Shown: in pieces, positions 46,743 through 64,000 of the stretch | Layout: every line of letters starts with the position of its first letter | Position numbering within the stretch: position 1 is the first letter of the stretch | NCBI GenBank assembly: GCA_963714795.1 | Contig: CAVQPS010000010.1 | Location: 385,002 to 449,001 of the forward strand | Direction: 5' to 3' | Origin: an uncultured Ignavibacteriales bacterium | GTDB taxonomy: Bacteria > Bacteroidota > Ignavibacteria > UBA10030 > SZUA-254 | DNA length: 64,000 bases | Made by a program: the position numbers and the translations under genes | The notes under the pieces: model-generated | Database searches by the model: none | Seen by the model: only the letters and a program-made list of their open reading frames with translations | Told to the model about the DNA's origin: nothing

Positions 46743-46995
46743 AAATACAATTTCTTTTTGGAAAACGGATTGATCAAATCCAAAAACGCAATATATTCAA
46801 AATGAAAGACAACCGTTGTGATTTGCCGTACATTTCATATTTGAGAAATTGATGAAAAAATATACCAAATCCTAAAGCGGTAGTCAAGAAATCCTCTTTT
46901 GCTTGAATAATTCGTTCATGCATTTTTCCGAAAAAATTTGTACATTGACATCAATAAACTTCCCCCTTCAATTTCACTTTTTCATGGAGCACAAT

Positions 46996-48369
46996 ATGGT
47001 CAATATTCCTGCGCCTACGTCAACAGGGCAGAAAACGAGTCCTCCCGCGGCCAGCAAACAATCAATCACTATTATCGACAATCGAACGGGCAAACAATAC
47101 GAAATTCCCATTGAACATGAAACGATTCGTGCGATCGACCTCCGGCAAATCAAAGTCAATGCCGATGATTTCGGTTTGATGACATACGATCCCGCCTTCA
47201 TGAACACGGCGGCCTGCAAGAGCAAGATCACGTTCATCGATGGTGATAAGGGAATTCTTCGATACCGCGGGTATCCGATTGAACAACTTGCCGAAAAAAG
47301 TACGTTTCTTGAAACAGCATATCTCATTATCTACGGAGAACTGCCTGCAAAGTCGCAAGCCGAAGATTGGACGAACAATATCATGATGCACACGCTGATT
47401 CATGAAAATGTCAAAAAATTTGTCGACGGTTTTCATTATGATGCTCATCCGATGGGGATGCTGGTCAGTTCCGTTGCGGCGCTTTCGACATTTTACACCG
47501 ATGCAAAACATATCAATGATCCTGAATCACGGACAAAACAGATTTACCGTCTCGTTGGCAAAATGCCGACGCTCGCCGCATTTGCATTCCGGCACAGCGT
47601 CGGACGACCGTACGTTTATCCCGACAATGAATTGAGTTATGCCGGAAATTTTCTCAGCATGCTGTTCAAGATGACGGAGATTCGATACAAGGTCAATCCG
47701 GTTCTCGAACATGCCCTTGACGTGCTTTTCATCCTCCATGCCGATCACGAACAAAATTGCAGTACGAGCGCGATGCGCAACGTCGGCAGTTCACAGGTCG
47801 ATCCGTACTCTGCCACAGCCGCTGCCGCGGCCGCGTTATACGGACCGTTACATGGCGGAGCGAACGAAGCGGTTCTCGAAATGCTCGATGGAATCGGAAG
47901 CAAAAATAATATCCCCGAATTCATCAAGTCGGTGAAAGAAGGCAAAGGAAAGTTGATGGGATTCGGACATCGTGTTTATAAGAATTATGACCCGCGGGCA
48001 AAAGTCATCAAGCGTCTTGCCGATGAAGTTTTCGAAGTCACCGGTCGAAACCCGAAATTAGACATTGCACTGGAACTGGAACGCATTGCACTGGAAGACG
48101 AATATTTCATCAAACGAAAACTGTATCCCAACGTCGATTTTTATTCCGGATTGATTTACCAGGCAATGGGATTTCCGGTGGAGATGTTCCCTGTCTTGTT
48201 TGCCATCGGCCGCACGCCGGGCTGGGTTGCCCAATGGCAGGAAATGCTTCTCGATCCCGACCAAAAAATCGCACGTCCCCGGCAGATTTATCTGGGCAGC
48301 GATACCCGTGATTATATCATGATGGGCAAGCGCGATGACGTACAGAAAGAGAACAAAACCGGGGCATAA
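46996..48369 (+). CDS. gltA: Citrate synthase (type II)
   Basis: The motifs GYPIEQLAE, HADHEQNCSTSAMR, MGFGHRVYKNYDPRAKVIKRL and YPNVDFYSGLIYQAMG are present. Start is assigned to the ATG at 46996, which follows a GGAG 6 nt upstream. The ORF is open from 46903. Confidence 0.9.
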   Translation: MVNIPAPTSTGQKTSPPAASKQSITIIDNRTGKQYEIPIEHETIRAIDLRQIKVNADDFGLMTYDPAFMNTAACKSKITFIDGDKGILRYRGYPIEQLAEKSTFLETAYLIIYGELPAKSQAEDWTNNIMMHTLIHENVKKFVDGFHYDAHPMGMLVSSVAALSTFYTDAKHINDPESRTKQIYRLVGKMPTLAAFAFRHSVGRPYVYPDNELSYAGNFLSMLFKMTEIRYKVNPVLEHALDVLFILHADHEQNCSTSAMRNVGSSQVDPYSATAAAAAALYGPLHGGANEAVLEMLDGIGSKNNIPEFIKSVKEGKGKLMGFGHRVYKNYDPRAKVIKRLADEVFEVTGRNPKLDIALELERIALEDEYFIKRKLYPNVDFYSGLIYQAMGFPVEMFPVLFAIGRTPGWVAQWQEMLLDPDQKIARPRQIYLGSDTRDYIMMGKRDDVQKENKTGA

Positions 48370-48404
48370 TAAACCATGAACGGAAATCATCCGAAACGGT
48401 CTCC

Positions 48405-49319
48405 TTGAGCGAAAGCGTAATTCTCGTCCTTTTTAATGTATTTATTCTTCTGATGCTGGCGTTGGATTTGGGAATCGTCCAGCGAAAAGCACATTTTCCC
48501 GCAATGAAGGAAGCAATCGGCTGGTCGGCAGTCTGGATCAGCCTCGCATTGCTTTTTGATATTTTTATCTGGTACGACCTCGGCCCGACGAAGGCGCTTG
48601 AATTCCTCACCGGTTATATTGTCGAACAGGCACTTTCCGTCGACAACGTCTTCGTCTTCATCGTGATCTTTACATATTTTGCAGTTCCGAAAGAAAGTCA
48701 GCACAAAGTATTGTTCTGGGGAATTCTGGGAGCGATAGTTTTTCGCGCGACCTTCATTGTGCTCGGTGTTTCTCTCGTTGCAAAATTCCACTGGATTTTG
48801 TATGCACTCGGCGCGTTTCTTGTCTTCACCGCAATCAAACTTGCCCTCCAGGAAGAAACACAGGTCGATCCGGAGCGAAATCCGTTCGTTCGCTATGCCC
48901 GAAAAATCTTTCCGCTTACCGATCGGTATCACGAATCGAAATTCTTCGTCACGAATAACGGAACAAGATTTGCCACGCCGCTCTTTCTCGTCCTTGTCAT
49001 GATCGAAACAACCGATATTGCGTTTGCCACCGATTCCATTCCTGCAATTTTTGCAATCACACGCGACACCATTATCATTTATACATCGAATATTTTTGCC
49101 ATTCTTGGATTGCGATCGCTCTACTTTGTCGTGTCCGGAATGATGAAAGAATTTCGTTATTTGAAATACGGTTTGTCGGTCGTGCTCGCTTTTATCGGGA
49201 TAAAAATGTTGATTGAACCGTTTTTGGGAATCCCTATCTCCTATTCACTCCTGTCAATTTTCGGCACTCTTGCAATTGCGGTAATCGCTTCCATCATCGC
49301 CGATAAGAAAACGGTATGA
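48405..49319 (+). CDS. TerC/Alx-family integral membrane protein
   Basis: The characteristic pattern is ALSVDNVFVFIVIF ... ETTDIAFATDSIPAIFAIT ... IFAILGLRSLYF, with ~8 TM helices. Confidence 0.8.
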   Translation: MSESVILVLFNVFILLMLALDLGIVQRKAHFPAMKEAIGWSAVWISLALLFDIFIWYDLGPTKALEFLTGYIVEQALSVDNVFVFIVIFTYFAVPKESQHKVLFWGILGAIVFRATFIVLGVSLVAKFHWILYALGAFLVFTAIKLALQEETQVDPERNPFVRYARKIFPLTDRYHESKFFVTNNGTRFATPLFLVLVMIETTDIAFATDSIPAIFAITRDTIIIYTSNIFAILGLRSLYFVVSGMMKEFRYLKYGLSVVLAFIGIKMLIEPFLGIPISYSLLSIFGTLAIAVIASIIADKKTV

Positions 49320-49774
49320 AACGACATCCGGCGTTTGTCGCCCTTTCTCAGGAACATCACGATGGATTACTTCTTGCAACGCGGCTGCAGCAGGGATCGA
49401 ACGCTCTCCTTCGATTATGGTCGCATGATCTTCACTGGCAGTCGGAATATGTCATAAAATTTTTCGATGATAATCTCCGCCAGCACTTTTCCGTTGAAGA
49501 AGAGATCGTTTTCCCGGTTGCCCGGCAATATCTTCCCGACGATTCCGGTATGGTTCAGAAATTGGTTGACCAGCACAACGACATGAGATCGATTGCAGAA
49601 TCTCTCCGCCTTCCGGCCGAAGAAAAACTGCAGAATTTGCTGACACAATTCGGAAAAATCCTCGAAGCACATATCCGCATCGAAGAACGGGAATTCTTTC
49701 CATTGTGTGAGGCACGAATTCCCGAAGAACAAATACGGGCATTGGGCAAACGAATCAACGAACAATTGAAATAA
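49316..49774 (+). CDS. Hemerythrin HHE cation-binding domain protein
   Basis: The His/Glu pattern is H..E.HD.LL ... HFSVEEEIVFP ... HIRIEEREFFP. Length is 152 aa. Its ATGA start overlaps the TerC stop. Confidence 0.7.
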   Translation: MKRHPAFVALSQEHHDGLLLATRLQQGSNALLRLWSHDLHWQSEYVIKFFDDNLRQHFSVEEEIVFPVARQYLPDDSGMVQKLVDQHNDMRSIAESLRLPAEEKLQNLLTQFGKILEAHIRIEEREFFPLCEARIPEEQIRALGKRINEQLK

Positions 49775-49780
49775 CCTGCC

Positions 49781-50587
49781 ATGCGATTGATATCGAACAG
49801 TATAGGAACTGAATATACGGTACAAGGGCCGCGCACCGGCTTGCCGGTCATACTGATTCACGGTTTTCCGTTCAGCAAGGAAATGTGGAAACCACAGGTC
49901 GATGCACTCGGAAAGGAATTTTACCTTGTCACGTATGATATCCGCGGGCACGGAGCGAGTGATGCCGGCGACGGACAATACTCCATCGAGTTATTCGTCG
50001 ACGACCTGATTGCACTCATGGACCACTTAAAAATTTCCCGTGCCATTGCGGCGGGACTTTCGATGGGCGGATATATTGCGTTACGTGCAATCGAACGGCA
50101 CCCCGATCGCTTTCGCGGACTCGTCCTGTGCGATACAAAAAGCGAAGCGGATAACAATGAAGGAAAAATCCGCCGAATGGCGCAAGTCAAAATCATTAAA
50201 ACTGACGGTTTGCAAAGCTTTGCCGCCGGGTTTCTCAAAAATATTTTTTATGAAAAGACATTTCAGAAAAACCCGGGAGCGGTCGAACTCATTCGAAACG
50301 TCATCGATTCTTCCAATCCGCTTGCCGTTACCGGAACGTTACTTGCGCTTGCCGCACGCACCGATACGACATCGACACTGTATCTGATAAAAGTTCCGAC
50401 ATTAATTCTCGTCGGCAAACATGACACGACGACGCCTCCCTCCGCCGCCAACGCGATGAAAGAAAAAATCCCCAACGCAGCGCTTTATATCATTAACAAT
50501 GCCGGCCATCTGAGCAACCTTGAAAATCCGGAAGATTTTAACAAGCATCTCCTGGAATATTTATTGAAATTAAAAGCAGAACGGTAA
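49781..50587 (+). CDS. Alpha/beta-fold hydrolase
   Basis: An oxyanion motif (ILIHGFPFS), the nucleophile elbow (GLSMGG) and a C-terminal His (AGHLSNLENPE) are present. Confidence 0.75.
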   Translation: MRLISNSIGTEYTVQGPRTGLPVILIHGFPFSKEMWKPQVDALGKEFYLVTYDIRGHGASDAGDGQYSIELFVDDLIALMDHLKISRAIAAGLSMGGYIALRAIERHPDRFRGLVLCDTKSEADNNEGKIRRMAQVKIIKTDGLQSFAAGFLKNIFYEKTFQKNPGAVELIRNVIDSSNPLAVTGTLLALAARTDTTSTLYLIKVPTLILVGKHDTTTPPSAANAMKEKIPNAALYIINNAGHLSNLENPEDFNKHLLEYLLKLKAER

Positions 50588-50667
50588 GAAACCGAACTCC
50601 CCGATTTGAAGTTGAAACGGGAGTTTGGTACATTTGTATTATCACTTGAACACGAAAGGAATCCCAC

Positions 50668-51681
50668 ATGCACAGCATTGAAAAATCTCCACCCGACATA
50701 AACACACAAACCGAACCGCGATTCTTCCAACGACTTCGCCGAACGCGGATGACTGCAGCACTCCGGTCGATGGTACGTGAAACGGAACTGTCAAAAAATG
50801 ATTTTATCTATCCCATGTTCGTCTATCCGGGAACGAAAGTAAAGAAAGAAATTTCTTCAATGCCCGGAATCTTTCAGTTATCGATCGATGAGATCGTTCG
50901 GGAATGTGTGGAGGTGAAAAAATTAGGAATTCCCGCCGTGATCCTGTTCGGCATTCCGGAACATAAAGATGAGGTCGGCAGTGAGGCGTACAACGATCTC
51001 GGCATCGTCCAGCGCGCAATCCGTTCGATCAAGAAAGAAGTGCCGGAACTTGTCGTCATCACCGATGTCTGTTTATGCGAATACACATCGCACGGTCACT
51101 GCGGGATTGTCAATGGTGATGAAATCGTGAACGATGCCTCGATCGAACTTCTTGCACAGGAAGCGCTCACCCACGCCCAAGCCGGCGCGGATATGGTTGC
51201 ACCGTCGGATATGTTCGACGGGCGGGTCGGTGCCATCCGTGCAATTCTCGATGAACATAAATTTCATAACATACCGATCATGGCATACGCGGCAAAATAT
51301 GCCTCCGGATTTTACGGTCCATTCCGTGAAGCTGCCGAAAGCACGCCGAAGTTCGGTGATCGCCGATCGCATCAAATGGATCCGGCAAATTCCGATGAAG
51401 CGTTACGCGAAGTGCAAGCAGACATCGACGAGGGAGCCGATATCGTCATGGTCAAGCCGGCGATGCCGTATCTTGACATCATCCGCCGCGTCAAAGACAC
51501 ATTTCAAATGCCGACGGCGGCATACAACGTGAGCGGTGAATATTCCATGGTGAAAGCCGCTGCCCGGCTCGGCTGGATCGACGAACAACGCGTGATGATG
51601 GAATTGCTGACCGGCATCAAACGTGCCGGGGCGGATATGATCCTCACCTATTTTGCAAAAGACGCCGCAAAATTACTGTAA
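50668..51681 (+). CDS. hemB: Porphobilinogen synthase (delta-aminolevulinate dehydratase)
   Basis: The N-terminus is [29 protein letters not shown]. The metal-site region [14 protein letters not shown], the active-site Lys region [11 protein letters not shown] and the C-terminal [10 protein letters not shown] are present. Confidence 0.9.
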
Positions 51682-51746
51682 TGAGGTTCCACCAGCTAAA
51701 TACTTTTTTTTCCTTTTGACTTTTTCTTTTTTACTTTCTGAATGGA

Positions 51747-53042
51747 ATGAAAACGACAAAAAAATCGGAAAAACTTTTTCACCGTGCACAGAAACATATT
51801 CCGGGAGGAGTGAATTCTCCCGTCCGCGCTTTTAAATCGGTCGGCATCAATCCGATATTTATCCAACGCGGAAAAGGAGCATACCTGTGGGACGTTGATG
51901 GAAACAAATACATCGATTACGTCGGTTCCTGGGGACCGATGATCCTGGGACATGCTCATCCGGAAATCTTGAAAGCCATTCAGCAAGCCATGAAATCCGG
52001 AACAAGTTTCGGCGCACCGACGGAACTGGAAGTAAAAATGGCGGAGTTGATAACGACGATGGTCCCGTCGATCGAAATTGTCCGCATGGTCAACTCCGGA
52101 ACGGAAGCAACGATGAGCGCCATCCGGCTTGCACGTGCCTATACCGGCAAAGATAAAATCATCAAGTTTGAAGGTTGCTATCACGGGCATGGCGATTCGT
52201 TCCTTATCAAAGCCGGGTCAGGTGCGGCAACATTCGGAGTTCCCGACAGTCCCGGTGTTCCGAAAGCTCTTGCCGCCGAAACGTTGAATGCCCGTTATAA
52301 CGATATCAGTTCTGTCCGAAAACTTGTTGCAGATTTCCCGTCACAGATTGCAGCGATCATCGTCGAACCGGTTGTCGGAAATATGGGATGCGTTCCTCCA
52401 AAAGCCGGTTTCCTCAAGAACCTTCGCGAATTATGCACGGAGCAGAAAATCATTTTCATTATGGATGAAGTGATGACCGGATTCCGGCTTGCACCCGGCG
52501 GCGCACAGGAACTCTATCATATTACGCCTGACCTGACGACATTGGGAAAAATTATCGGCGGCGGACTTCCGGTGGGTGCGTACGGCGGAAAAAAGGAAAT
52601 CATGCAGATGGTTTCGCCGAGCGGACCGATGTATCAGGCAGGAACACTGTCCGGCAATCCACTTGCAATGGCGGCCGGTTACACATTGCTTTCAATTCTT
52701 TTGAAGAACAAATCGATCTATAAAGCTCTCGAGCAACGATCTGCCATACTGGAAAACGGTATCCGTGAAAACATGGATTCGCTCGGAATGTCATGGACGT
52801 TAAATCGTGTCGGATCGATGTTCACGCTATTTTTTTCCGATAAACCGGTAGCTAATTTTGATGATGCAAAAACATCGGATACGTCGAAGTTTGCCGCATA
52901 CTTCCGATCAATGCTGGAGCAGGGAATCTATCTCCCGCCTTCACAATTTGAAGCCGCGTTTCTTTCAGCAAGCCATACAGCATCTGATATTGAAAAAACT
53001 ATCAAGGCAAACAAGAAAGCGTTAAAATCAGTACAAAAGTAA
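51747..53042 (+). CDS. hemL: Glutamate-1-semialdehyde 2,1-aminomutase
   Basis: The motifs [17 protein letters not shown] and [19 protein letters not shown] are present. A PLP-lysine region ([18 protein letters not shown]) is present. Confidence 0.9.
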
Positions 53043-53117: not shown

Positions 53118-55166
53118 TTATCCTCCGATTCTTCCCGGAATCGTCGTTGAGGGTTGACCTCCGCCGTTACTATTCGGACTATTAATCGTGATCACCACGG
53201 AAGCGGGAATTGAAATATTTCCAAAACCACCCTGAGTCTGATCCACTACATCGAACCAGAAATCTGTTGTCCCGGGTCCTTTCTCCATCGTATCACCCAA
53301 CAAAATATTTGTATTGCCATTGACGGTCAGATTGATCTGGGTTCCGCTGGGAGGAGTGTATTGTAACGTAACAGTAATGCTTGTCCCTGATGCCAGCGGA
53401 TGACCAAACTCGTCGGTAATATGATAATTGATTCTTCCGGAACTTCCGCCACTTGGCACAAAGAACGAGTCCGCATTGATTATTGGAAAAAGAGGTGCCG
53501 TTGTGAACAGAACGATAGTCGAATCGAAAACAGTAACTCCATTTTGCCCAAGCGTGGTAGCAAAGACCTTAGCCCAGCCATGACCGTCCGGCGAATTAAA
53601 CAGTAGACCGATCGACGCATCAAACGGCAACGGGTTACCGCTGTATAAATTAACGGTAGCATGACTTGTCGGATCCGTAAATCCGGACGCATCGATGACA
53701 CCACCGGTAGTATTAAAATATACGGCAGTATTTGTTCTGACAGGATTGCTGTATTTATCGCCGACTTGAACAGTGATAGCGTCGGTCTTGTCCAAGTAAT
53801 CATATGCAGGGAAATTATGTTGGAAGGGTGCTACGTCGAAATGCACCTGATCCGGCAACCCCGCATTGACCGTGAGAAGAACAGGAGTCGACTGTACCAG
53901 AGCCCCATCCGATTTTCGGTAGAGCCATGCCCATAATTGCAGAACACCGGACACCGTCCCGCTATTGATAATAGTTGCCACGCGTCCCGAGGCGTTGGTC
54001 AGTGCAGCTGATGGTGACACGTACGCTCCGCCCGATACCGGCGTTCCAACAATTTTAAAATATACCGAATCCTGATGATCGATATCGATCGGGAATCCTA
54101 ACGAATCACGCACTTCCCACGTAATGATGGATGATTCTATTCCCCCGACGCCATAGACCGCAATTTGATTGTTGCTAAGACTAATAAGCGCGATTGAATG
54201 AGCTTCTCCGGTTCCGGAATCGCGTACGACGCCGGTGGTCGTGTCCCGAACAAGAGTGATATTTTGATACGTTGGACTGCCGGCCTGGAAAGTAAGGTTA
54301 AACGTTTGCGACAGATATCCGTTTTTTATAACCTTCAATCCTGCCGGTAACGAAGCCAGACCTTTCAGGTCGATAGAGAACAAATACGACCCATCGGTGG
54401 CACTCAAAACGCTGTCGGTCACCAATGCTGATGTCAGTATGAGACTTGCATTTATGACCGGTTGGTTTGACGATGCGTCAAGCACGCGACCGAGCACCTG
54501 ACCAACGGTTGAACCCTGATCGACCTGCATCAGGAGATTGCCGAGGTTTGTCGTTTGCCCCTTGTGGGCTTCATACGTCAATTGTTTTGTTTTAAATCCT
54601 GTCTTGCTTACGGTGACAGAAACGGGCAGCGAATCTCTATCGACAAGATTCACCGGAAGTATGAACATACCATCAATCGATGTTACCACCTGATCGGAAA
54701 ATCCGGGAACGGCATAAATAACAGTCGAACCGCGCAGCGGATAGAGTGTAGCGCTATCACGAACAGTTCCGCTTAATACGGCATAGGTACTCAGATCGAC
54801 CGTAAGTTGGATGGGCAACGTTAATTGACTATTGCCAACCATTACGAATGTGGTTGCATACACCAGATATCCTTGTTTTTTCACCGTAATTGTTGTTTGC
54901 ACGGAATCACTGGCTTGATTATACTCAAAACCGAAGGTGCCATTTGCATCCGTATGAGTGGAATCAACCGATCCGCCGGAATTACGGAAGACAGTGGCAT
55001 TAAAAACCGGAATTCCGGTCGACACATCGGTTACGGTACCGTTAATGTCTGCTTTAATCGACAAGGTATTGGAATTTCCAGTCGTGGCTGGCGGCAAATC
55101 CTTGCAACTCCACAAACCGAATGTAAAAGCTGCAACGAGCAGAACAACGAATATTCTAGAGTTCAT
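53118..55166 (-). CDS. Large surface lipoprotein with repeated carboxypeptidase-regulatory-like (transthyretin-like) beta-sandwich domains; last gene of the pilus operon
   Basis: It has a signal peptide plus lipobox (GLWSC). At least four modules of ~90 aa begin G.V.D (GTVTDVSTGIPVFNATVF, LSGTVRDSATLYPLRGSTVIY, VLGRVLDASSNQPVINASLIL, TTGVVRDSGTGEAHSIAL). The C-terminal half is Thr/Ser/Gly-rich. Confidence 0.6.
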   Translation of the reverse strand: MNSRIFVVLLVAAFTFGLWSCKDLPPATTGNSNTLSIKADINGTVTDVSTGIPVFNATVFRNSGGSVDSTHTDANGTFGFEYNQASDSVQTTITVKKQGYLVYATTFVMVGNSQLTLPIQLTVDLSTYAVLSGTVRDSATLYPLRGSTVIYAVPGFSDQVVTSIDGMFILPVNLVDRDSLPVSVTVSKTGFKTKQLTYEAHKGQTTNLGNLLMQVDQGSTVGQVLGRVLDASSNQPVINASLILTSALVTDSVLSATDGSYLFSIDLKGLASLPAGLKVIKNGYLSQTFNLTFQAGSPTYQNITLVRDTTTGVVRDSGTGEAHSIALISLSNNQIAVYGVGGIESSIITWEVRDSLGFPIDIDHQDSVYFKIVGTPVSGGAYVSPSAALTNASGRVATIINSGTVSGVLQLWAWLYRKSDGALVQSTPVLLTVNAGLPDQVHFDVAPFQHNFPAYDYLDKTDAITVQVGDKYSNPVRTNTAVYFNTTGGVIDASGFTDPTSHATVNLYSGNPLPFDASIGLLFNSPDGHGWAKVFATTLGQNGVTVFDSTIVLFTTAPLFPIINADSFFVPSGGSSGRINYHITDEFGHPLASGTSITVTLQYTPPSGTQINLTVNGNTNILLGDTMEKGPGTTDFWFDVVDQTQGGFGNISIPASVVITINSPNSNGGGQPSTTIPGRIGG

Positions 55167-55223
55167 AAGTTAAGTTCCTTGGAAATAAAGTGAATTCAGT
55201 GTTCATAAAAAATCTAATTGCCG

Positions 55224-56471
55224 TCATTTCTTTTCGTATTCTTTTTTTAAATCTTTTCTTTTGGCATCAATTAATTCCTGCTGACTGAACCTATTCACCA
55301 TACGTCCGCGAATCGGTTGCGATAATTCCGCTTTGAGCAAAATGATCAGTTCAGTCTTGATTTTTTCCGTATTTTCCGAGCCAAAGACATACCGAAGACC
55401 AAAAAACCACCAGGGTAAATCTTTCAAAACCGGAACACCTTCCCGCGTTTCCTGATCCGATGTGGTATATAACCCACCAATAACCGTTTCTTCGCCGTCA
55501 TACAAAAGGGCATGTGTTTCCACCATTGTTTTATCTATTTCCGGGCCCACGACTCCTACATCGGCTGAACTTTGCTCAACCCTTACCTGGAGATAAATAA
55601 AACTTGTATCCGCTTGCGTATAAACTGTCGGTGTAACCTTGATAATGGTACCTGTTTGTACTTGCGTATTTATAGAATTTCCTGCAACGTCTTTTGTCAC
55701 AATAAAAATACTTTTACCGATCTGAATATATCCTTCCTTGCCGTTACGAACGACCAATTCCGGACTGGTAATAACTTCGCCAAGTTGGTTGGAGCCGAAA
55801 AATTTTACCAACGCGTCAATATTGGCAAATGTAAATTCCGGAGGCGATGAAATAATACCGAGTGCCTTATCAAGAGAAGGACTCGTTGACGTGGGCGGAA
55901 TCGGAGACGTTGTGTCGCCCTTCGAAATGCCGGCACTATTGTAGAAATTCATCGCGGGCTCTTTCGATTTTGATCGGAAGAAATCCCAGCTGATGCCGTA
56001 GCTTTGCAACTTATCAAGGTTCGTTGAAAAGAACGCCGCTGAAATTTTCACATCTTTTGCATCAAGCGTCGGCGGGGGTTCCGAAGGAGTTGAAGAACCG
56101 ACAGGACCGCCGGTTGTTGTCGGCGTGGCTCCGGCCTGCATGATGCGAATATAATCCGCCTCTTCCGTGAACGTCAAGCCGTTTCGCGCAAGAATGATTT
56201 CCAGCGCATCACGCCAATGTTGATTGACGATATAGACACCGATCGGGTTCGTTCGTTTTTCCAGATCGATGATAATTTTTCCGGCGAATTGTTTGCTTAA
56301 TTCTCCGATCACCAACAGCGCCTGATCCATGCGCATCGTCGAATCAAGTGAAACGATTTCCTGGGGATTAACATACCCCTTTGTTCGCATTCGGTCATCA
56401 CGCGACTGCCCGAACGTTCCCGAAACACAGGAAATGAACAAGAACAAAACTACGATATAGTGCTTTTTCAT
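55224..56471 (-). CDS. pilQ: Secretin-family outer-membrane channel (PilQ/GspD-like), short form of 415 aa
   Basis: The C-terminal secretin signature is VIGGLYTTSDQETREGVPVLKDLPWWFFGLRYVFG...ELIILLKAEL. An N-terminal secretin_N-like domain is present. It has a signal peptide and no AMIN repeats. Confidence 0.65.
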   Translation of the reverse strand: MKKHYIVVLFLFISCVSGTFGQSRDDRMRTKGYVNPQEIVSLDSTMRMDQALLVIGELSKQFAGKIIIDLEKRTNPIGVYIVNQHWRDALEIILARNGLTFTEEADYIRIMQAGATPTTTGGPVGSSTPSEPPPTLDAKDVKISAAFFSTNLDKLQSYGISWDFFRSKSKEPAMNFYNSAGISKGDTTSPIPPTSTSPSLDKALGIISSPPEFTFANIDALVKFFGSNQLGEVITSPELVVRNGKEGYIQIGKSIFIVTKDVAGNSINTQVQTGTIIKVTPTVYTQADTSFIYLQVRVEQSSADVGVVGPEIDKTMVETHALLYDGEETVIGGLYTTSDQETREGVPVLKDLPWWFFGLRYVFGSENTEKIKTELIILLKAELSQPIRGRMVNRFSQQELIDAKRKDLKKEYEKK

Positions 56472-56489
56472 GGATACTCCGTGATAATA

Positions 56490-57374
56490 TTACTTAACAG
56501 GTTGACCAACGCGAATTGTGAGTTCGTAGCGTTCTGCCACGCCTCCTTTATTTAATAAACATTCTACTTTTCCTTCGTTCGGAAGAATGCGCGTTACATA
56601 ACCCAGATAAACTTTATCGCCTTCTTCCAACGTGCGAGATTTCTGATTTTGATCGATAATAAATGCTTTCCCGGGAATAACCGCTTTCAGATCCGACCGT
56701 TCAATTTCAATTTCATCGGCTTGGGGTGGAGGAATTTCATGCAGAATCAAAGGAGAAAACGGATTCGACGTCAATGTGGCGGCAACGGTATTGATTTGCC
56801 CCGGAGCATTATTTAATTCCGCAATCGACGAATAGTACGCCTGCAATTCCATTTCAAACAGGACAAGAATTTTTGTATCATTACCTTCTTTACTTTTTGA
56901 TTCGTATCCCCGAAGGCTCAGGTTGGAAATTTTAAACAACCGGCGCCCGCTTTCCGTGTACCAGATAAATTTATAGAGATTACTGAAGGGCGCCTCACCT
57001 TTCAGCGAGTAGACATTGTAACCGAAGTTTCCAAAATCATGGGGACCGACAAATGTCAGATCCATTTTCACTTCGCCGCTGACATCCATCGTGTTGCTCA
57101 GATAGCCGTACGTTTCCCCGGTGATGTCTTTTTGCGGAACATCTTTATTGCGGGTTTCCCAATGCTTTTTAATCGCATCGAGTTGTGCCGATGTTGTATT
57201 GTATTGATTTGCCAGATCGGGCGTGTTCTGCAATTCAATTTCAATTCTTTTGATCTCAGCATCGGTTGTCTTGAGCTGTTTGGGCAGAGAAAAGAACATA
57301 AGAAACGAACCCAGGCTGAGAATCACCGCAAGAGTTATCCCGAGAATAATCGTATTTCGAATTATATATGACAC
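56490..57374 (-). CDS. PilO/PilP-like type IV pilus alignment-subcomplex protein (bitopic)
   Basis: It has an N-terminal TM helix, a coiled-coil segment and a periplasmic domain. Its position between the PilM-PilN fusion gene and pilQ matches pilMNOPQ gene order. Sequence similarity is weak. Confidence 0.45.
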   Translation of the reverse strand: MSYIIRNTIILGITLAVILSLGSFLMFFSLPKQLKTTDAEIKRIEIELQNTPDLANQYNTTSAQLDAIKKHWETRNKDVPQKDITGETYGYLSNTMDVSGEVKMDLTFVGPHDFGNFGYNVYSLKGEAPFSNLYKFIWYTESGRRLFKISNLSLRGYESKSKEGNDTKILVLFEMELQAYYSSIAELNNAPGQINTVAATLTSNPFSPLILHEIPPPQADEIEIERSDLKAVIPGKAFIIDQNQKSRTLEEGDKVYLGYVTRILPNEGKVECLLNKGGVAERYELTIRVGQPVK

Positions 57375-57405
57375 AGGTATCTCCGAGTAATAAGATTGTT
57401 AATTG

Positions 57406-58986
57406 TTATTGTGCCGCGCCGTTTTTTCCGGATTTTTCCGGCTGTGGCGGAATCGATATCACAAAATTATACACCGGCGGTACTTTTTCACGAATTTCTT
57501 TTACTTCGACTTTCGTCAGCGTTGCGTTATCGAATAATGCCGCAATCCGGGGAATACGTCCGCGATATAATGCGTACCCCTGAACGCTCATTGCACCGCC
57601 GCCGAGGGATTTAATTTCCGTGATCCAAACCGCGCCGAGGTCTTCAACGCCTTTTGTCAATTGGGCTATCGTCCGGTTCCACCGGTCGGCCCCCGGTACA
57701 AGCGAATCGTACACAGCCAATGCTTTATTGTAACGCGTAATCTGGTCGTTCAAGTTGGAGATCGCCACTTTCAATTTTTCATTCTCATCCACTTTGTCCT
57801 GAAGCTGTTCCAGTGTGTGCTTTTTTGTCCTTACGTCCTTCTGCATGTTTCCATACCGGGTTGTAAAATAAAACGTTGCAAGGAACACGAGAACCAAAAG
57901 AACATAGCCATGCCAGGCAAGTTTGAATGTACGCTGGCCTTCGCGCACAGCTTCCGGCAATAAATTAACCTGATAAAATCCCGGATGATTCTCGTCCAAT
58001 GCTCTCCATGCGGTAGAAATTGCAACCGCAAATTCCGGAATAAGCTCCTGCTGTTCCGGTGAAAGAGCGCTGGCATCCAGGTAAGGCGTTTTTAAATATT
58101 GAACATCCACTTCGGGCAACTGTTCGCGGATAAATTCGTCAAAGCCGATACGCCGGCTTTCTCCGGCAAGAAGCACTTTATCGATTCTCGGAATTCCCAT
58201 ATTATCCTGCTCGAGAAGAAGACGGCTGTATACCGTATTCTGAATACTCGGAGAATCATAACCTTCCCCGAGCACAGGAGCAAAGTGAAAGAATTCCGTC
58301 CCCTTCATAAAAATTAATCTGGTAAATTCAACGCCCACATAAATAATCGTGGTGATTTCGTCGGCTGAAAATCCATAATTCGCCCGGGCAAGGTTCATCA
58401 ATGCAATATCCGCAATTTCGATCAGGGCAATTCGCGGCAAACGCTTTCCCAAAAACGGTTTAATTTCTTCCAGAGCACTTAACATGCTTGTCCCGTCTTC
58501 CCGAACGACGCAGACGAGATTCTTCTCGGCAGAATAAAAGAAATCAATGGCATCCAGCGGCGGTTGAACTGAACGAACGTTGCGTAACTCATTCACAACT
58601 TGCTGTTTTAGTTTTTTCCCTTTCAGTCCGAAATCACTTTCCAGAATATGGTAGTAAATGCTCGGCTCGGCAATGGCATAACTAAGGACATATTGGGAAA
58701 TCGGATACTTCGACAACAACCCGAGGAGAATATTGTTATTATCCCCCACTGCCTCTTCTTGCGATGCCCCGCCTGTATTCAGCGCAAATGTTTCACCGCC
58801 CCCGCTCAAATTGTCAACCTCTGTATTTAGCTGCTGGCGATCTTCCAATTTCCGCGCAAGCGCGACTGAATGGAGTTCGTCGATGTAGATATGACCTTTT
58901 TTTAACGAAAGCTTGGCAAGCTTGAGATCTAATCCATCAACAAATATGCCTACCGATGTATTTTTATTTCCCCTGAGTGATGACAT
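57406..58986 (-). CDS. Fused PilM (actin-like ATPase fold) plus PilN (TM and coiled-coil) type IV pilus assembly protein
   Basis: The N-terminal ~340 aa carry PilM-like segments such as VGIFVDGLDLKLAKL. A single TM helix (WHGYVLLVLVFLATFYF) follows. A PilN-like coiled-coil and periplasmic domain complete the protein. Total length is 526 aa. Confidence 0.6.
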   Translation of the reverse strand: MSSLRGNKNTSVGIFVDGLDLKLAKLSLKKGHIYIDELHSVALARKLEDRQQLNTEVDNLSGGGETFALNTGGASQEEAVGDNNNILLGLLSKYPISQYVLSYAIAEPSIYYHILESDFGLKGKKLKQQVVNELRNVRSVQPPLDAIDFFYSAEKNLVCVVREDGTSMLSALEEIKPFLGKRLPRIALIEIADIALMNLARANYGFSADEITTIIYVGVEFTRLIFMKGTEFFHFAPVLGEGYDSPSIQNTVYSRLLLEQDNMGIPRIDKVLLAGESRRIGFDEFIREQLPEVDVQYLKTPYLDASALSPEQQELIPEFAVAISTAWRALDENHPGFYQVNLLPEAVREGQRTFKLAWHGYVLLVLVFLATFYFTTRYGNMQKDVRTKKHTLEQLQDKVDENEKLKVAISNLNDQITRYNKALAVYDSLVPGADRWNRTIAQLTKGVEDLGAVWITEIKSLGGGAMSVQGYALYRGRIPRIAALFDNATLTKVEVKEIREKVPPVYNFVISIPPQPEKSGKNGAAQ

Positions 58987-59015
58987 ATGCTACATATCCT
59001 CGTTGTGTGCTAAAA

Positions 59016-60245
59016 TTAATCCCCTGACGGCGTTAGATTAAGAATTTGTTGCAATCTCCGTTTATTATTTGCAAAATTCATTGCTGTTTCCAAAGTAATC
59101 TTCTTCGCAAGATATAATCGTTTTAAGTCCTGTTCCATCGTGATCATACCCAGATCGCCGGATTCCGACATCATCTGATAAATCTCGCCGGTGTTATTAT
59201 TTTTTATCGCTGCGCGAACCGACGGCGACGCCACCATAATTTCTTTTACCAATACGCGTTTTTTATCCAGGCTGGGAACAAGCTTTTGTGACATCACACA
59301 TTGGATAATGTCGGCAAGACGGTTCCGAACCCGTTCCTGTTCGATCGGCGGAACTTCACCGATGATACGGTCGATACTTTCCACTGCAGACGAAGTATGG
59401 AGTGTCGAAAAAACTTTATGGCCGCTATCAGTTACTTCGAGGGCAGTAAGAATCGTATCGGGATCACGCAACTCGCCGATGACGATGATATCAGGATCCT
59501 GCCGTAATGATTGAACGGTACCTTCTTTAAACGACAAAACATCCCGTCCGACTTCACGGTGCCTGATAATGCACCGATCCGATTTGTGCACATATTCGAT
59601 CGGAGCCGCAATGATCACACAATGTGCATCAACGGAATGGTTATTGGCGTCAATAATACTGTCAAGCGTCGAACTTTTTCCGGAACCGGTAATCCCGGTG
59701 ACCAGGATAAGACCTTCTTTGGTATGAGCAAGACTAACGATGCGAGTCACATTCGCATGTAATTCAAGACTCCTGTACGGACGAACGACTGCGTTGATTG
59801 CCCGCATGTTGAGAGCAATCTGGTCCAAATCGAAATATGCATCGGCACGGAACCGATGCATTTGATCGTTCTGAAAAATCGTGTACGAGAAATCAAGATT
59901 TCGATTTTCATACAAAAATTGACGCTGGCGTTCAAGAAGAATAGTATGAATGAGAACATTCGTTTCATCAAACGTAAAGACCGGGATCGTCAGATCGGGT
60001 TTTTTTGAACCATGAATGCGATACCAAATTTTTCCTTGAGAACCAAAGCCACCCAAATCGATATCCGAAGCAGTAATCTCAAACATTTTCAAGAGGAAGC
60101 CGTCAAACATTCGTTTAATGATTACGCGTTCCTCTTGTGATTGACGTGAAACGAGATCGCCAATAAGCATTTGTCGCTCGACCCCGTATGCCGTTTCGGG
60201 GATGTTAGCAACCATTTGTCTTATTATTGATACTGCTTCGTCCAT
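59016..60245 (-). CDS. pilT: Type IV pilus retraction ATPase PilT/PilU family, with a ~60-aa N-terminal extension
   Basis: The Walker A motif is GITGSGKSSTL, the Asp box is IIAAPIEYVH and the Walker B/His box region is DIIVIGELRD...TLHTSSAVESIDRI. Length is 409 aa. Confidence 0.8.
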   Translation of the reverse strand: MDEAVSIIRQMVANIPETAYGVERQMLIGDLVSRQSQEERVIIKRMFDGFLLKMFEITASDIDLGGFGSQGKIWYRIHGSKKPDLTIPVFTFDETNVLIHTILLERQRQFLYENRNLDFSYTIFQNDQMHRFRADAYFDLDQIALNMRAINAVVRPYRSLELHANVTRIVSLAHTKEGLILVTGITGSGKSSTLDSIIDANNHSVDAHCVIIAAPIEYVHKSDRCIIRHREVGRDVLSFKEGTVQSLRQDPDIIVIGELRDPDTILTALEVTDSGHKVFSTLHTSSAVESIDRIIGEVPPIEQERVRNRLADIIQCVMSQKLVPSLDKKRVLVKEIMVASPSVRAAIKNNNTGEIYQMMSESGDLGMITMEQDLKRLYLAKKITLETAMNFANNKRRLQQILNLTPSGD

Positions 60246-60568
60246 TTTACTCGTTTTTATTTTGTTTCAAGTCAAACTTTAGATAACCGATTAAAAACCC
60301 TTATATTCTTGGCGTCAAATATATGCAAAAGTTCCGCTGTTGTCAAACCATCTTATTAATTAAAACCTTCCAAATTCTCCTAATTGCAAAAAATCTTCAA
60401 AAACGAATGGAATTGAGGATTTTTAAAAAGTAATTGATTCTCGTCCTTTTCCATTTTAAGAGTATTTGAGCGCAAACTTCTCGATTTATCCGTTTTAAAA
60501 TTCCTGATAAATTATCTCAAATTCTCTAATTTTGCAACCATGCTGTGAGGACAATCAACATTGTGAAA

Positions 60569-62356
60569 TTAATCTTCCATAGTCGTCGAAATAATTTCTT
60601 CCATCGTCGTTACGCCCTGCAGCATGCGTTCCATTCCGGACCGACGGAGAGTCCACATACCATCTTTCGACGCCTGATCCCTGATGGCATTTTCATCGAC
60701 ATCAGAACCGGAGCTTACGATTATTTGCTTAATCTCCTTTGTAAAATAGAGCGCTTCATGAATAGCCGCGCGGCCCTTCCATCCATTATTACATTTGTCG
60801 CAACCGACGGGGCCATAGAGAGTTGTATTCGCCAACATTTCTTCCGTGAATCCAAATTTCAAGTAGATTTGTTTATCCTTTTCGTTTAACGTCAGCGGTT
60901 TTTTACAAATCTCGCAGAGCGTACGTATAAGCCGTTGAGCAACGACGATATTAATTGCGTATGCGATAAGAAATGGTTCGACTCCCATTTTATATAACCG
61001 GGAGACTGCGCTGGGAGCATCGTTGGTGTGCAACGTGGAAAATGTCAGATGGCCTGTGTTGGCAAGTTTGATAGCAATTTCTGCCGTTGCTTTATCGCGC
61101 ATTTCACCGACCAAAACAATATCCGGATCGTGACGTAAGATACCGCGGATGGCTTCTTCAAAATTCATTTTGGACCCGATTTTTAGCTGACGGGCTCCTT
61201 TAATAATATATTCTACCGGGTCTTCGACTGTCAGGACATTGACGGTCGGGTCGATAACCTGATGAAGCGCGGCAATCAATGTCGTACTTTTTCCACTCCC
61301 TGTCGGTCCGGTAAGAATGATGATACCCTGTGGTCGCGAAATCGCTTTATTAAAAAAGTCCTTTGCCGGTCCCTGAAGGCCGAGTTTATTCAAATCCGTG
61401 ATGACTTTACGATCGTCCAGTACACGAATGACAACACTTTCGAATTTATGTCGATACTCCAATCCAACAATCGGCATAATAGAAACACGAAACCGGATCT
61501 GATGGCCATCAATTAAACGCTGGATATAACCATCCTGAGACATTTCACGTTCGAACCGATCGACATTTCTTGACCGATCTTTGATTACTGCCGCAACGGC
61601 TTCCGGCATCGTGTTTTCCTGAACGTGCCAAATTTTCAGATTGCCGTCAACACGAAAATAAAATTCTGTCCGATTGCCTTCTTTGCCAACGACATGTATA
61701 TCACTCGCCCCTTGTCTGACTGCCTCAACGAGTGCTCCCTCAATTAAATTAACTAATGCACTCTTGCTTATTTCATTTTCAAGAACTTCCTCATCGAGAG
61801 CCGAATCGTCTTCGGATGAATTAATGACAACATCGGCATCCGCTAACAGTTTGAGAAATTCATTCTGGAGCGGTATCACTTTTTCTATGAGGGACTGAAA
61901 ATCTTTCAGCCGGCAGTAGCACACCTCATATTTTTTTACTCCAAAATTGCGAGCAATTGAAGGGATATTACGATCGGTAGGATCGGCGGCAATAAGAATA
62001 AGTTTATCGGTCTGTTTTTCATCAAACCGAAGCGGTAGTACTTTTATTTGAATTAACAGGTCACGATAAATATCCGGAAGCGCATCGACATATTTTTTAA
62101 TAAATTCAATGCGTGCGTCGTCGATAACTTCGTCATTCAGATAAACCTCACGGAACGCGTAGAGGTTCGCGACTTCGCGAAACACGAGGTCGTGATCGAC
62201 GCTAAAATCAGTGACAAGAATCTGACCGAGATTCCGTCGATTTTTTTTATCTTCGGCTTCCCGTACATGCAGAGACTTTTCCAAAGTCTCGTAATCGATT
62301 ATACCTTTTTTTAGAAGTGTATATCCGATCTTATCAGTAATGTCAATATCAGCCAT
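60569..62356 (-). CDS. pilB: Type IV pilus assembly / type II secretion ATPase PilB/GspE family
   Basis: The Walker A motif is GPTGSGKSTTL. The region DIVLVGEMRD, the tetracysteine motif CEICKKP...CDKC and an N-terminal GSPII_E_N-like domain are present. Length is 595 aa. Confidence 0.85.
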   Translation of the reverse strand: MADIDITDKIGYTLLKKGIIDYETLEKSLHVREAEDKKNRRNLGQILVTDFSVDHDLVFREVANLYAFREVYLNDEVIDDARIEFIKKYVDALPDIYRDLLIQIKVLPLRFDEKQTDKLILIAADPTDRNIPSIARNFGVKKYEVCYCRLKDFQSLIEKVIPLQNEFLKLLADADVVINSSEDDSALDEEVLENEISKSALVNLIEGALVEAVRQGASDIHVVGKEGNRTEFYFRVDGNLKIWHVQENTMPEAVAAVIKDRSRNVDRFEREMSQDGYIQRLIDGHQIRFRVSIMPIVGLEYRHKFESVVIRVLDDRKVITDLNKLGLQGPAKDFFNKAISRPQGIIILTGPTGSGKSTTLIAALHQVIDPTVNVLTVEDPVEYIIKGARQLKIGSKMNFEEAIRGILRHDPDIVLVGEMRDKATAEIAIKLANTGHLTFSTLHTNDAPSAVSRLYKMGVEPFLIAYAINIVVAQRLIRTLCEICKKPLTLNEKDKQIYLKFGFTEEMLANTTLYGPVGCDKCNNGWKGRAAIHEALYFTKEIKQIIVSSGSDVDENAIRDQASKDGMWTLRRSGMERMLQGVTTMEEIISTTMED

Positions 62357-62410
62357 TCCACCATCTCCAAAGTGATAATCCCTATATCCGAGAATGACTC
62401 CGCCGGCATA

Positions 62411-63763
62411 TTAGCCGCCACCGGGAGCCGAACTCGGATGGAACGTTGCCGTTTCCGAAGAAACAAGTGTCAGCAACGTTAATACAACCATGATGATCAT
62501 GCTAATCCACAACTGTATGAAATCGATTGCGTTTCGCATCTTATAGCTTGTTTCCCGTTCATAATATTCCGCAAGTTGCAGAGCGGTATGTTTCACCGTT
62601 CCGGTTTCAGCACCGGAATGAAAACGGGAAATTGCCGTTCTGGTAAACACGCCGGAGGCCTCGAATGCTTCCGTGATGCCGGCACCTTTTTCAACCATCA
62701 TTGGAACTGCGATGGTTTTTATCTGATGTTCCATATATTTGTTCCCGCACGCTTCAGCCGCCATTTTAATGACATCGATATTTTCACCTGCCCCGCTGTA
62801 CAAAGCATAAAATACCCGGCAAAATATTTCAATGGCTGTTTTATGCAAGAGGTTACCCATGACCGGCAATTTCCAAAAATACTTATCACGAAGAAATTGT
62901 CCGCGTTCGGTTGTCAAAAACCTGGCAAGAAATAATGAAGGCACCAAAACGGCAATAAGAATAACAATATAATTGGCTTGCAAGAAGTAACTCAATTTCA
63001 GGGTAGCATTGGTCATGGGAAATTGTTCCATTGGAACTTTCAGCTGAACAAAAATTTCTGCCATGCTGGGAAAAATAAATCCTACGTAATAGAGACATGC
63101 CCCGAAAAGCGCTATCAAAGTCACAACCGGCATGATTAAGGCACTCTTCAGGTTCTTACGGAATTCCGCCTGACGTTCGAGAAACTTAGCAGTACTGTCA
63201 TAAATTTCTGCCATGTTTCCGCTCTTGGAAGCAAGACCTAACATATGAGCGGTGAATTTTCCGAACACCGCTTCTTGCTTGACAAACACTTTTTCACTGT
63301 CTTTTCCTTGCTTCAACTCATTATTAATTTCGCGTAAACTGTCGCGCATGACACTGTTTTCAACGTCATTGACCAACAACTGCAGAATTTCATTGAACGG
63401 CAATTTCTGCCGAATTAAATCCGCGCTGACGCGGACAAATGTCACTATTTCCGCGGTCGGAGGTTTCATTCTGAAATTGAACGGTTTTTTCTTTACGCTC
63501 AGGACCCGGAAGCCCATCTTCGAAAGTGCATCCTGCACTTCTTCTTTGGTAAAAGCCTTCTGCTCGCCCAACAGAGGTTTTTCCGTTCCGCGCTGTACTT
63601 TATATAAGAATGTGGCACGAGGCAGGACGCGCAATAATTTAAATTTCCGCTGCGTCGCCATCGTCTGCGCTTTTTGTTTTGCCGTACGCGTGTTTTCCGC
63701 TTCAATAACTCCTTGAACGGCTTTACCCGCCAGCGACAACCCCTCGACTCTAAATTCAGCCAT
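62411..63763 (-). CDS. pilC: Type IV pilus platform protein PilC/GspF family
   Basis: There are two T2SSF domains with 3-4 TM helices. A conserved loop is present (FPSMAEIF...P). Confidence 0.8.
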   Translation of the reverse strand: MAEFRVEGLSLAGKAVQGVIEAENTRTAKQKAQTMATQRKFKLLRVLPRATFLYKVQRGTEKPLLGEQKAFTKEEVQDALSKMGFRVLSVKKKPFNFRMKPPTAEIVTFVRVSADLIRQKLPFNEILQLLVNDVENSVMRDSLREINNELKQGKDSEKVFVKQEAVFGKFTAHMLGLASKSGNMAEIYDSTAKFLERQAEFRKNLKSALIMPVVTLIALFGACLYYVGFIFPSMAEIFVQLKVPMEQFPMTNATLKLSYFLQANYIVILIAVLVPSLFLARFLTTERGQFLRDKYFWKLPVMGNLLHKTAIEIFCRVFYALYSGAGENIDVIKMAAEACGNKYMEHQIKTIAVPMMVEKGAGITEAFEASGVFTRTAISRFHSGAETGTVKHTALQLAEYYERETSYKMRNAIDFIQLWISMIIMVVLTLLTLVSSETATFHPSSAPGGG

Positions 63764-64000
63764 ACCACATCTCCAGGTTTATGTACATTTCTTTTTCTCT
63801 TTTTAATCGATGAAACAGAGTATATTTCAAAGCCGAAATAATGTAGAGACGGATTCTACAAAAAACAACAGACGTGTGAGATAGGCAATACCTTTTCAGA
63901 TAAGTGCCATAATTATTCAAACGTTCGGTTTTCATCTTTATCGAAATCCTTTAAATACCGCAACAATTTCCGGGACATCTTTCATCATAATTCTTTATCA

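Follow-up and report, generated by a model that had tools for sequence, protein, structure and literature searches.

A probable type IVa-like pilus locus conserved in Ignavibacteria, with a PilM-PilN fusion and an atypical pilin family

What kind of machine is encoded by a type IV pilus gene cluster that has one gene in place of pilM and pilN, a short secretin without AMIN domains, no pilin gene in view and a large lipoprotein at its end? This question is raised by a 64,000-nucleotide (nt) stretch of contig CAVQPS010000010.1 from an uncultured Ignavibacteriales bacterium, referred to here as the window, in which a sequence-only reading had described an atypical type IV pilus operon. Most of the parts of a retractile, type IVa-like pilus machine are, in our view, likely to be encoded here, with vertical conservation throughout the Ignavibacteria. 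Gene content and conserved synteny support the description as an atypical type IV pilus locus, and the seven minus-strand open reading frames (ORFs) on which it was based are present where that reading had placed them. The gap noted between pilB and pilT is also present, with a length of 323 nt in place of 324 bp. The features of the locus are listed below in the direction of transcription, with protein lengths in amino acids (aa).

63764 to 64000, minus strand: part of the spacer between the pilin gene and pilC (386 nt in all), from the overlap with contig L001
62411 to 63763, minus strand: pilC, inner-membrane platform protein (450 aa); PF00482 T2SSF in two stretches, E 4.5e-27
60569 to 62356, minus strand: pilB, extension ATPase (595 aa); PF00437, E 1.6e-100
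60246 to 60568, minus strand: pilB-pilT spacer (323 nt), with a sigma-70-like promoter within it
59016 to 60245, minus strand: pilT, retraction ATPase (409 aa); TIGR01420
57406 to 58986, minus strand: PilM-PilN fusion ORF (526 aa); fold search and family profile
57979 to 58986, minus strand: predicted actin-fold domain resembling PilM (about residues 1-336 of the fusion; disordered insert at 50-79); AlphaFold2 (AF2) model and Foldseek
57955 to 57966, minus strand: NLLP motif at the PilM/PilN junction (residues 341-344); conservation
57406 to 57954, minus strand: PilN part, with a transmembrane helix, a long coiled coil and an alpha/beta core (residues 345-526); profile match
56490 to 57374, minus strand: PilO-fusion ORF (294 aa); family profile
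56805 to 57374, minus strand: PilO-like part, with a transmembrane helix, a coiled coil and a core (about residues 1-190); profile A6
56490 to 56732, minus strand: beta-rich C-terminal domain in the position of PilP (about residues 215-294); gene order
55224 to 56471, minus strand: secretin gene pilQ (415 aa); PF00263
53118 to 55166, minus strand: outer-membrane lipoprotein (682 aa); PF13620, lipobox LWSC with Cys21

Machine components and conservation of the locus

A scan of species-representative genomes identified 212 relatives, and 80 loci were retrieved for comparison. Searching these with the window proteins (tblastn) recovered the same order in nearly every locus with enough flanking sequence: one or more pilin genes, pilC, pilB, a gap of variable length, pilT, the PilM-PilN fusion (PilMN), the PilO fusion, the secretin and the lipoprotein. 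The synteny comparison proposed by the sequence-only reading therefore shows that gene order is kept in related loci of Ignavibacteria and Bacteroidota. The order is retained down to 48% PilMN identity, and the pilus cluster is therefore a vertically inherited trait of the Ignavibacteria, neither an island nor an assembly artefact.

PilM, PilN and PilO are invisible to Pfam, and their identification required fold searches and family profiles. PilMN, which has no Pfam match, has 467 homologues, of which the full-length ones listed are about 510 to 545 aa long, with a few shorter fragments from short contigs; the named homologues belong to Ignavibacteria or Bacteroidota. The protein is encoded by one ORF in nearly all of the 80 genome loci. 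A missing stop codon or an assembly artefact, which had been raised as a possible cause of the fusion, was ruled out since the full-length ORF recurs in independent assemblies as well as in nearly all of these loci, and the fusion is genuine. An AF2 model of PilMN was built on 22 homologues (predicted local distance difference test (pLDDT) score 79.3); it has an actin-like domain at residues 1-330, and in its C-terminal part a helix (residues 345-429) is followed by a strand-strand-helix-strand-strand arrangement. The best Foldseek match of the model in the PDB is Pseudomonas aeruginosa PilM (5eq6, E 1.9e-15), followed by Thermus PilM (2ych), Myxococcus PilM (3jc8_Ma) and then FtsA, while GspL ranks only 36th (E 2e-6). 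The family profile A2 matches Myxococcus PilN (3jc8_Na, E 5.6e-4) over residues 339-478, and the NCBIfam Amuc_1101 PilM-like family matches residues 338-465 (8.5e-10). At the junction lies the motif NLLP, in which N341 and P344 are invariant among the 22 homologues and L342 and L343 are at least 90% conserved. We take this motif to be the PilM-binding peptide at the N-terminus of PilN, conserved as INLLP (structure 2ych). PilM and PilN with its N-terminal peptide, as expected of a type IVa machine, are thus found as one fused protein. From sequence and model, the 526-aa protein is a true end-to-end fusion of PilM and PilN, with a GspL-like architecture but a sequence and fold nearer to PilM and PilN.

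The PilO-fusion family has 301 members among 1.84 billion representative proteins, and nearly all of them are about 280 to 300 aa long and align from end to end. The 294-aa window protein has no Pfam match, and the PilP Pfam model does not match it. A profile built from 74 sequences (A6) matches Myxococcus PilO (3jc8_Oa) over residues 11-164 with an E-value of 2.3e-6, and distant members give sub-threshold matches to PF04350 PilO and T2SSM_b, which provides the PilO component of a type IVa machine. The separate PilP lipoprotein of such machines is missing, with no lipoprotein gene between pilO and pilQ. The sole match to the C-terminal ~80 residues of the fusion is a weak one, to the C-terminus of DotF/IcmG (NCBIfam E 9.9e-6; PDB profile E 0.25-0.36), and hhalign comparisons of this domain gave no signal against Escherichia coli GspC and none against GspM. 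From gene order we infer that the domain is a PilP-like functional equivalent, although this assignment failed all sequence tests, which counts against it. The gene had been described as PilO/P-like; its PilO part is borne out by the profile match and its PilP part is not.

Several distant homologues of the PilO fusion (P0342, P0373, P0360, P0348 and P0386) have LysM or SH3 modules before the C-terminal domain, or an AMIN domain appended. Unlike the secretins, one distant homologue thus carries an AMIN domain, and one 888-aa protein seems to fuse PilM, PilN and the PilO-fusion protein. The LysM, SH3 and AMIN modules would fit a role for the PilO fusion as a periplasmic bridge near the peptidoglycan, where the secretin itself lacks an AMIN domain.

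The secretin is laid out as a signal peptide, an N0-like domain, a Pro/Thr-rich linker, one N-domain and the secretin core. PF00263 matches residues 227-383 (E 1.7e-28) and there is a weak STN match at residues 76-112, but no AMIN domain was matched in Pfam, and the secretin therefore departs from type IVa secretins, which have N-terminal AMIN domains. Matches to GspD and PilQ sequences in the PDB are limited to the core, GspD scoring slightly better than PilQ. ORF calls in 72 relatives range from 392 to 474 aa (median 419), or about 403 to 425 aa after over-extended starts are discounted, so the short secretin without AMIN domains, as first described at 415 aa, has counterparts of similar length in relatives. 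The signal peptide of the window copy contains a Cys that is not conserved, and we therefore ruled out that the secretin is a lipoprotein.

The motor and platform proteins were identified by Pfam and NCBIfam as a PilB-type ATPase with a PilC platform, the pair expected of a type IVa machine. For PilC, the PilC and GspF NCBIfam models both matched at 1e-37, under their equivalog cut-offs; in relatives it shows 68-89% identity, and its gene is found between the pilin genes and pilB without exception. The type IV-A PilB model (TIGR02538) gave PilB 419 bits, under the equivalog cut-off of 675, and the GspE model gave 380 bits, also under its cut-off; there is a weak MshEN match at residues 96-160. 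PilT, the retraction ATPase of type IVa machines, scored 322.8 bits against TIGR01420 (cut-off 319.1), with residues 50-395 aligned to profile positions 5-341. The alignment with Aquifex PilT (2ewv, 2gsz; E 1e-67) begins at residue 51-53 of the window protein. Both alignments confirm the N-terminal extension of PilT but place its length at ~45 aa, shorter than the ~60 aa first proposed; it is conserved, aligning from residue 1 in relatives. Upstream of pilT, at 60346-60318 on the minus strand, lies a near-consensus sigma-70-type promoter (TTGACA-17-TATATT, 11 of 12 positions, identified by match to the consensus only). This suggests that the cluster may be expressed as two transcription units, one comprising the pilin gene, pilC and pilB, and the other running from pilT through the lipoprotein gene.

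Pilins and the question of a prepilin peptidase

The sequence-only reading had found no major pilin gene, which is literally true of the window but does not characterise the system. As the window stops 237 nt upstream of pilC, the lack of a pilin gene within it says little. An independent Logan contig, L001, also encodes this PilC protein; the contig is 100% identical to window positions 63300-64000 (701 overlapping bases) and extends beyond the window end. On L001 a pilin ORF of 125 aa (positions 2776-3153, equivalent to window positions 64150-64527), which starts MGQQQLLLIILGVIIVGIAIAVGI, lies directly upstream of pilC; its end is separated from the window edge by 150 nt and from pilC by 386 nt. 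A predicted 59-aa ORF overlapping the start of pilC (window 63756-63935, minus strand; L001 3368-3547) is probably spurious; neither homology nor any pilin-like feature speaks for it.

Pilin genes head the region upstream of pilC in most relatives with enough upstream sequence. Across the fetched loci there are 108 of them, usually one to four in tandem per locus and sometimes more. Residues 1-38 of the pilin are almost invariant, with the N-terminus MGQQQLLLIILG... (MGQQQLLLIILGVI...) and the pattern MG(Q/S/T)QQLLL. The family comprises 3524 clusters at 90% identity, named "hypothetical" apart from one "PulG" label, and has no Pfam or NCBIfam match. Its AF2 model (pLDDT 91.9) predicts a helix at residues 2-55 packed on a four-stranded sheet, the long N-terminal helix on a beta sheet that characterises the pilin fold, and a Foldseek search with this model returned one credible match, the minor pilin PilV.

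An in-frame stop codon lies at most 8 codons upstream of 91 of the 108 pilin genes, and an AGGAG-like Shine-Dalgarno motif 4-20 nt upstream of 73. Together these fix the start codon, and therefore any leader has at most two residues ("MG") and there is no Glu5 in either register. The class III signature, that is a short basic leader ending in Gly, Phe or Met at +1 and Glu at +5, is absent from the pilin. Many classical pilA genes have sigma-54 promoters. For 31 of the 108 pilin genes, the 200 nt upstream contain a sigma-54-like motif (TGGYAY-N5-TTGY), compared with 40 of 6481 background windows, and in L001 the motif TGGCATGGCGGTTGT ends 76 nt upstream of the pilin ATG. A literature search returned no paper with the motif MGQQQL or the term "PilD-independent", and nothing relevant on leaderless pilins.

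In a few close relatives only, the neighbour of the pilin gene is a 665-aa protein (L001 455-2452, upstream of the pilin) with CarboxypepD_reg repeats and a C-terminal tail of the type IX secretion sorting type (FlgD_ig match, motif NYPNPFNPST); partial matches to it occur in L004, L008, L012, L014 and L037.

Further candidate pilins are encoded in the gap between pilB and pilT. In 44 loci this gap is about 2.6 kb long and holds a three-gene module (e.g. L003 4278-6511, L053 6157-8582). The module does not occur at this site in the window or in about 16 loci with a genuine pilB, and it was not found elsewhere in the window by tblastn or motif scan; in L028 and L031 it is on the opposite strand. 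All three products open with a hydrophobic helix and have no normal prepilin leader. The first (~165-205 aa) begins M-x-x-G-Q5 in 37 of 40 sequences, the second (~190-215 aa) begins M-x-V-M-L-D6 in 30 of 40 and has no Gly before the helix, and the third (~340-450 aa) begins M-G-K/R with no polar residue near position 5. Apart from a sub-threshold match to DUF4900, they have no Pfam or NCBIfam match, and profiles of the products gave nothing significant against PDB sequences (best match the Thermus pilin TTHA1219, E 0.46). We infer, from their N-terminal helices and position only, that these proteins are candidate minor pilins. In canonical systems, minor pilins of the GspH/I/J type keep Glu5 and the large GspK-type subunit does not, a pattern that the N-termini of the candidates would mirror.

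No prepilin peptidase was found in the 64-kb window by a motif scan or by a scan of multi-transmembrane ORFs followed by Pfam. Motif scanning of the flanking sequence of 80 loci was negative as well. A phmmer search with E. coli GspO over 1.37 Mb (the window and 81 loci, with flanks of up to 10 kb on each side) found no relative, and E. coli GspG had no match in the same 1.37 Mb, so there is no canonical pilin in this sequence. These results are consistent with a possibility that we advance tentatively and hold to be somewhat short of even, namely that Ignavibacteria build a retractile type IV pilus from pilins that have no cleavable class III leader and use Gln5 or Asp6 in place of Glu5, with neither a prepilin peptidase nor N-methylation. 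To our knowledge, no type IV filament system characterised so far does without a prepilin peptidase and the Gly(-1)/Glu5 signature, and a leaderless pilus would, if true, be the first such system independent of the PilD family. The major pilin and the first minor class share Gln at position 5 only when their N-termini are left uncut, and the second minor class has no Gly to cleave after; both observations favour the leaderless reading. A report on Melioribacter roseus (2013) described pilus assembly genes but found neither pilA nor pilD. M. roseus is likely to carry the same cluster, and the unrecognised pilin family may explain why pilA and pilD were reported missing.

Several points weigh against the overall reading, including assembly without a peptidase. 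All of the evidence is computational, and the peptidase search was confined to the window and locus surroundings rather than genome-wide. Gly2 could be a cleavage site that leaves Gln at +1. The window's own genome has no three-gene module between pilB and pilT, and the minor-pilin assignment is drawn from N-terminal helices and position. One Ignavibacteriales metagenome-assembled genome (MAG) has been reported with Geobacter-like canonical pilins (PMC7399161), so a peptidase may exist in some members. Given the limits of the peptidase search and the canonical pilins of this MAG, we therefore treat peptidase independence as a hypothesis.

The alternative is that the pilins are ordinary substrates of an A24 peptidase encoded elsewhere in the genome, which would cut after Gly2 (Gly4 in the first minor class) to give a mature N-terminal Gln, possibly cyclised. 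A cyclised N-terminal Gln is found in some archaeal pilins. We regard this as unlikely, while noting that the major pilin and 34 of the 40 first-class minor pilins do have a Gly immediately followed by a polar residue and then a hydrophobic helix, that MSH-type systems without a peptidase in their own locus borrow one (PMC6668835), and that one Ignavibacteriales genome has canonical pilins. In contrast, the MxVMLD class offers no Gly to cut after, the Gln shared at position 5 requires that no residue is removed, and there is no peptidase within 10 kb in 80 loci. We also know of no precedent for a two-residue uncharged leader. The absence of pilD reported for M. roseus likewise argues against an ordinary substrate.

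Annotation tools detect pilins via the Gly(-1)/Glu5 signature, and the class-wide pilins of Ignavibacteria, which have no such signature, stand as "hypothetical" in thousands of entries. With this family, the idea of pilus assembly without a peptidase gains a specific candidate that can be tested.

The lipoprotein downstream of the secretin

The cluster ends with the lipoprotein gene, and a lack of conservation of this gene next to pilQ in relatives would have refuted the sequence-only reading. It is conserved there in all 62 loci with enough flanking sequence: it starts at most 400 bp downstream of pilQ in 58 of them and at most about 830 bp downstream in the other four. A recognisable lipobox is present in 55 of 59 orthologues. 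The repeats proposed earlier, at least four carboxypeptidase-regulatory-like units, are present as three CarboxypepD_reg repeats (PF13620, E 1.1e-18) that start near residues 41, 130 and 223; the remainder of the protein, the C-terminal ~370 aa, is an immunoglobulin (Ig)-like core of the Big_1/Invasin_D3 type. Of 22 orthologues, 19 have a Big_1 match (best 4e-14) and 18 an Invasin_D3 match, and precomputed Pfam assignments agree.

Orthologues range in length from 371 to 2545 aa, and most of the distant ones keep a single N-terminal repeat with the core (~490 aa). Giant forms of 1855-2545 aa are encoded in L028 (12674-20311), L031 (14322-21464) and L008 (13848-19415). In L028 and L031 the conserved Ig-like core is at the C-terminal end, and the L031 gene is apparently split or frameshifted near its start. 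Together with the secretin, the lipoprotein is the fastest-diverging component of the cluster; in L004, for example, it has 48% identity compared with 75% for PilMN.

In Bacteroidota, the signal for surface export after Cys+1 is a Lys or polar residue followed by two acidic residues (PMC5080379). Lys, Asn, Thr or Gln followed by Asp or Glu is common after the lipid-modified Cys of the orthologues, and at least one acidic residue occurs at +2 to +6 in 51 of 55. At least two acidic residues are found in only 18 of the 55, about a third, and the window protein (CKDLPP) has one. The variable length and the Ig-like repeats fit a role at the surface or as an adhesin better than a pilotin role. We lean, at a little under an even chance, towards an outer-membrane lipoprotein that is probably surface-facing and acts as an accessory protein or adhesin, and as such it would be an addition to the known pilus accessories, a secretin-linked lipoprotein with Ig repeats.

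A less probable second choice is that the lipoprotein faces the periplasm as a pilotin or stabiliser and targets or anchors the AMIN-less secretin in the outer membrane. The position after pilQ in 62 of 62 loci, the missing AMIN domain of the secretin and the lack of the strict surface-export signal in the window protein and most orthologues would all be in keeping with this. Pilotins are, though, either tetratricopeptide repeat (TPR) proteins or small (~120 aa) S-domain binders, and the lipoprotein is neither: it has beta-sandwich domains only, with no TPR or PulS/AspS-like fold. Its range of 371-2545 aa is also at odds with such a role, since the largest forms, when extended, are estimated to be far longer than the periplasm is wide, and its fast divergence is as expected for an exposed protein.

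The lipoprotein is also central to a third possibility, which we consider improbable: that the locus chiefly serves secretion, through a type II-like endopilus that arose from type IVa pili, an origin also proposed for the Bacteroidetes type II secretion system (T2SS). The lipoprotein would then be its cargo, as the pullulanase PulA is for the Klebsiella Pul system. The invariable linkage of lipoprotein and secretin would suit this, as would the similar scores of PilB against the pilus and GspE models, the secretin core that is slightly closer to GspD than to PilQ, and the finding of Denise et al. that the Bacteroidetes T2SS falls within the type IVa clade. The operon nevertheless includes a bona fide PilT in every locus (the window PilT scoring above the family cut-off), and an arrangement of pilin genes in tandem, with sigma-54-like promoters, is usual for major pilins. 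The Cytophaga cluster encodes an A24 peptidase and a GspG that can be recognised, lacks PilT, and is hence a different system.

Beyond the lipoprotein gene, a convergent hemL frequently adjoins the cluster in relatives. In the window the cluster is flanked by a set of heme biosynthesis genes (36914-53042) for GluTR, HemD, URO-D, coproporphyrinogen oxidase, ferrochelatase and an amine-oxidase-type protein, to which, on our own reading, hemB and hemL presumably also belong. Citrate synthase and TerC are other housekeeping neighbours; a 305-aa ORF without a Pfam match lies between the heme genes and citrate synthase (45825-46742, minus strand), and a run of multi-transmembrane ORFs at 22527-33103 resembles, on our reading, a nuo operon. 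No tRNA genes were found in the window, and Rfam at gathering thresholds gave no match over the whole window and L001.

Proposed assembly and comparison with known systems

Under the type IVa-like reading, a cytoplasmic PilM ring would be tethered to PilO through the transmembrane helix and coiled coil of PilN, and the C-terminal domain of the PilO fusion would reach the N0 domain of the secretin in place of a separate PilP lipoprotein. The locus thus illustrates that the alignment complex can be compacted into two fusion proteins. The pilins would have no removable class III leader and would use Gln5 (Asp6 in one candidate minor class) as a stand-in for Glu5, so that assembly may not need a prepilin peptidase. 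The lipoprotein, presumably co-transcribed after pilQ, would act through its Ig-like core, with the N-terminal beta-sandwich repeats serving as a length-variable spacer. Such a machine would probably serve in adhesion, twitching or DNA uptake. The sequence models obtained here can help to detect pili in Ignavibacteria, a class found in abundance in sediments, groundwater and bioreactors.

The closest comparison is with the type IVa machines of Myxococcus xanthus, P. aeruginosa and Thermus thermophilus. PilB, PilT, PilC, PilM, PilN, PilO and a secretin are common to both, as are the gene order M-N-O-(P)-Q, the pilin fold of an N-terminal helix and a four-stranded sheet, the NLLP peptide of PilN and sigma-54-like pilin promoters. 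The ignavibacterial system differs in that PilM and PilN form one polypeptide, PilO bears a C-terminal domain with no separate PilP lipoprotein, the secretin has no AMIN domain, PilT has an extension of ~45 aa and an extra Ig-repeat lipoprotein follows pilQ. Its pilins have a leader of at most two residues without Gly(-1), Phe1 or Glu5, and there is no PilD in or near the locus. Four features of type IVa membership are therefore missing: the class III pilin signature, AMIN domains, a separate PilP, and a prepilin peptidase in or near the locus.

In type II secretion systems, GspL follows the same plan as PilMN, with an actin-like domain, one transmembrane helix and a periplasmic ferredoxin-like domain. 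The fold of PilMN, in contrast, ranks PilM first, the protein keeps the PilN-type NLLP motif and the system has a PilT; E. coli GspL had no phmmer match in the window and loci. In Akkermansia (Amuc_1098-1102), a long PilM-like protein has a transmembrane and a PilN-like segment, as in PilMN. The matches to the Akkermansia families are partial (Amuc_1101, 8.5e-10, 38 bits; the Amuc_1098 secretin, 3.4e-8, 32 bits), whereas the family cut-offs are 650 and 750, and the ignavibacterial secretin has 415 aa compared with about 805 in the profile. Membership in these two families was therefore rejected, with scores far under the cut-offs, and the relation is only remote.

Within the same superphylum, the Bacteroidetes "T2SS" (Cytophaga hutchinsonii CHU_3191-3201) is likewise a divergent machine derived from type IVa pili, and its PilM/N/O/P-like parts likewise escape Pfam (PMC5553014, PMC6668835). 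The Cytophaga cluster has a Peptidase_A24 and a GspG that can be found by BLAST, and no PilT; the ignavibacterial cluster is the opposite on all three counts, and we rejected, on gene content, that the two are the same system. The known pilotins and secretin partners, which include the TPR lipoproteins PilF, PilW and Tgl, PulS/AspS and TsaP, are linked to secretins as the ignavibacterial outer-membrane lipoprotein is. The latter differs from them in having no TPR, LysM or PulS-like domain, in being 5 to 20 times larger than PulS-type pilotins, and in being built of CarboxypepD_reg and invasin-type Ig domains in variable copy number.

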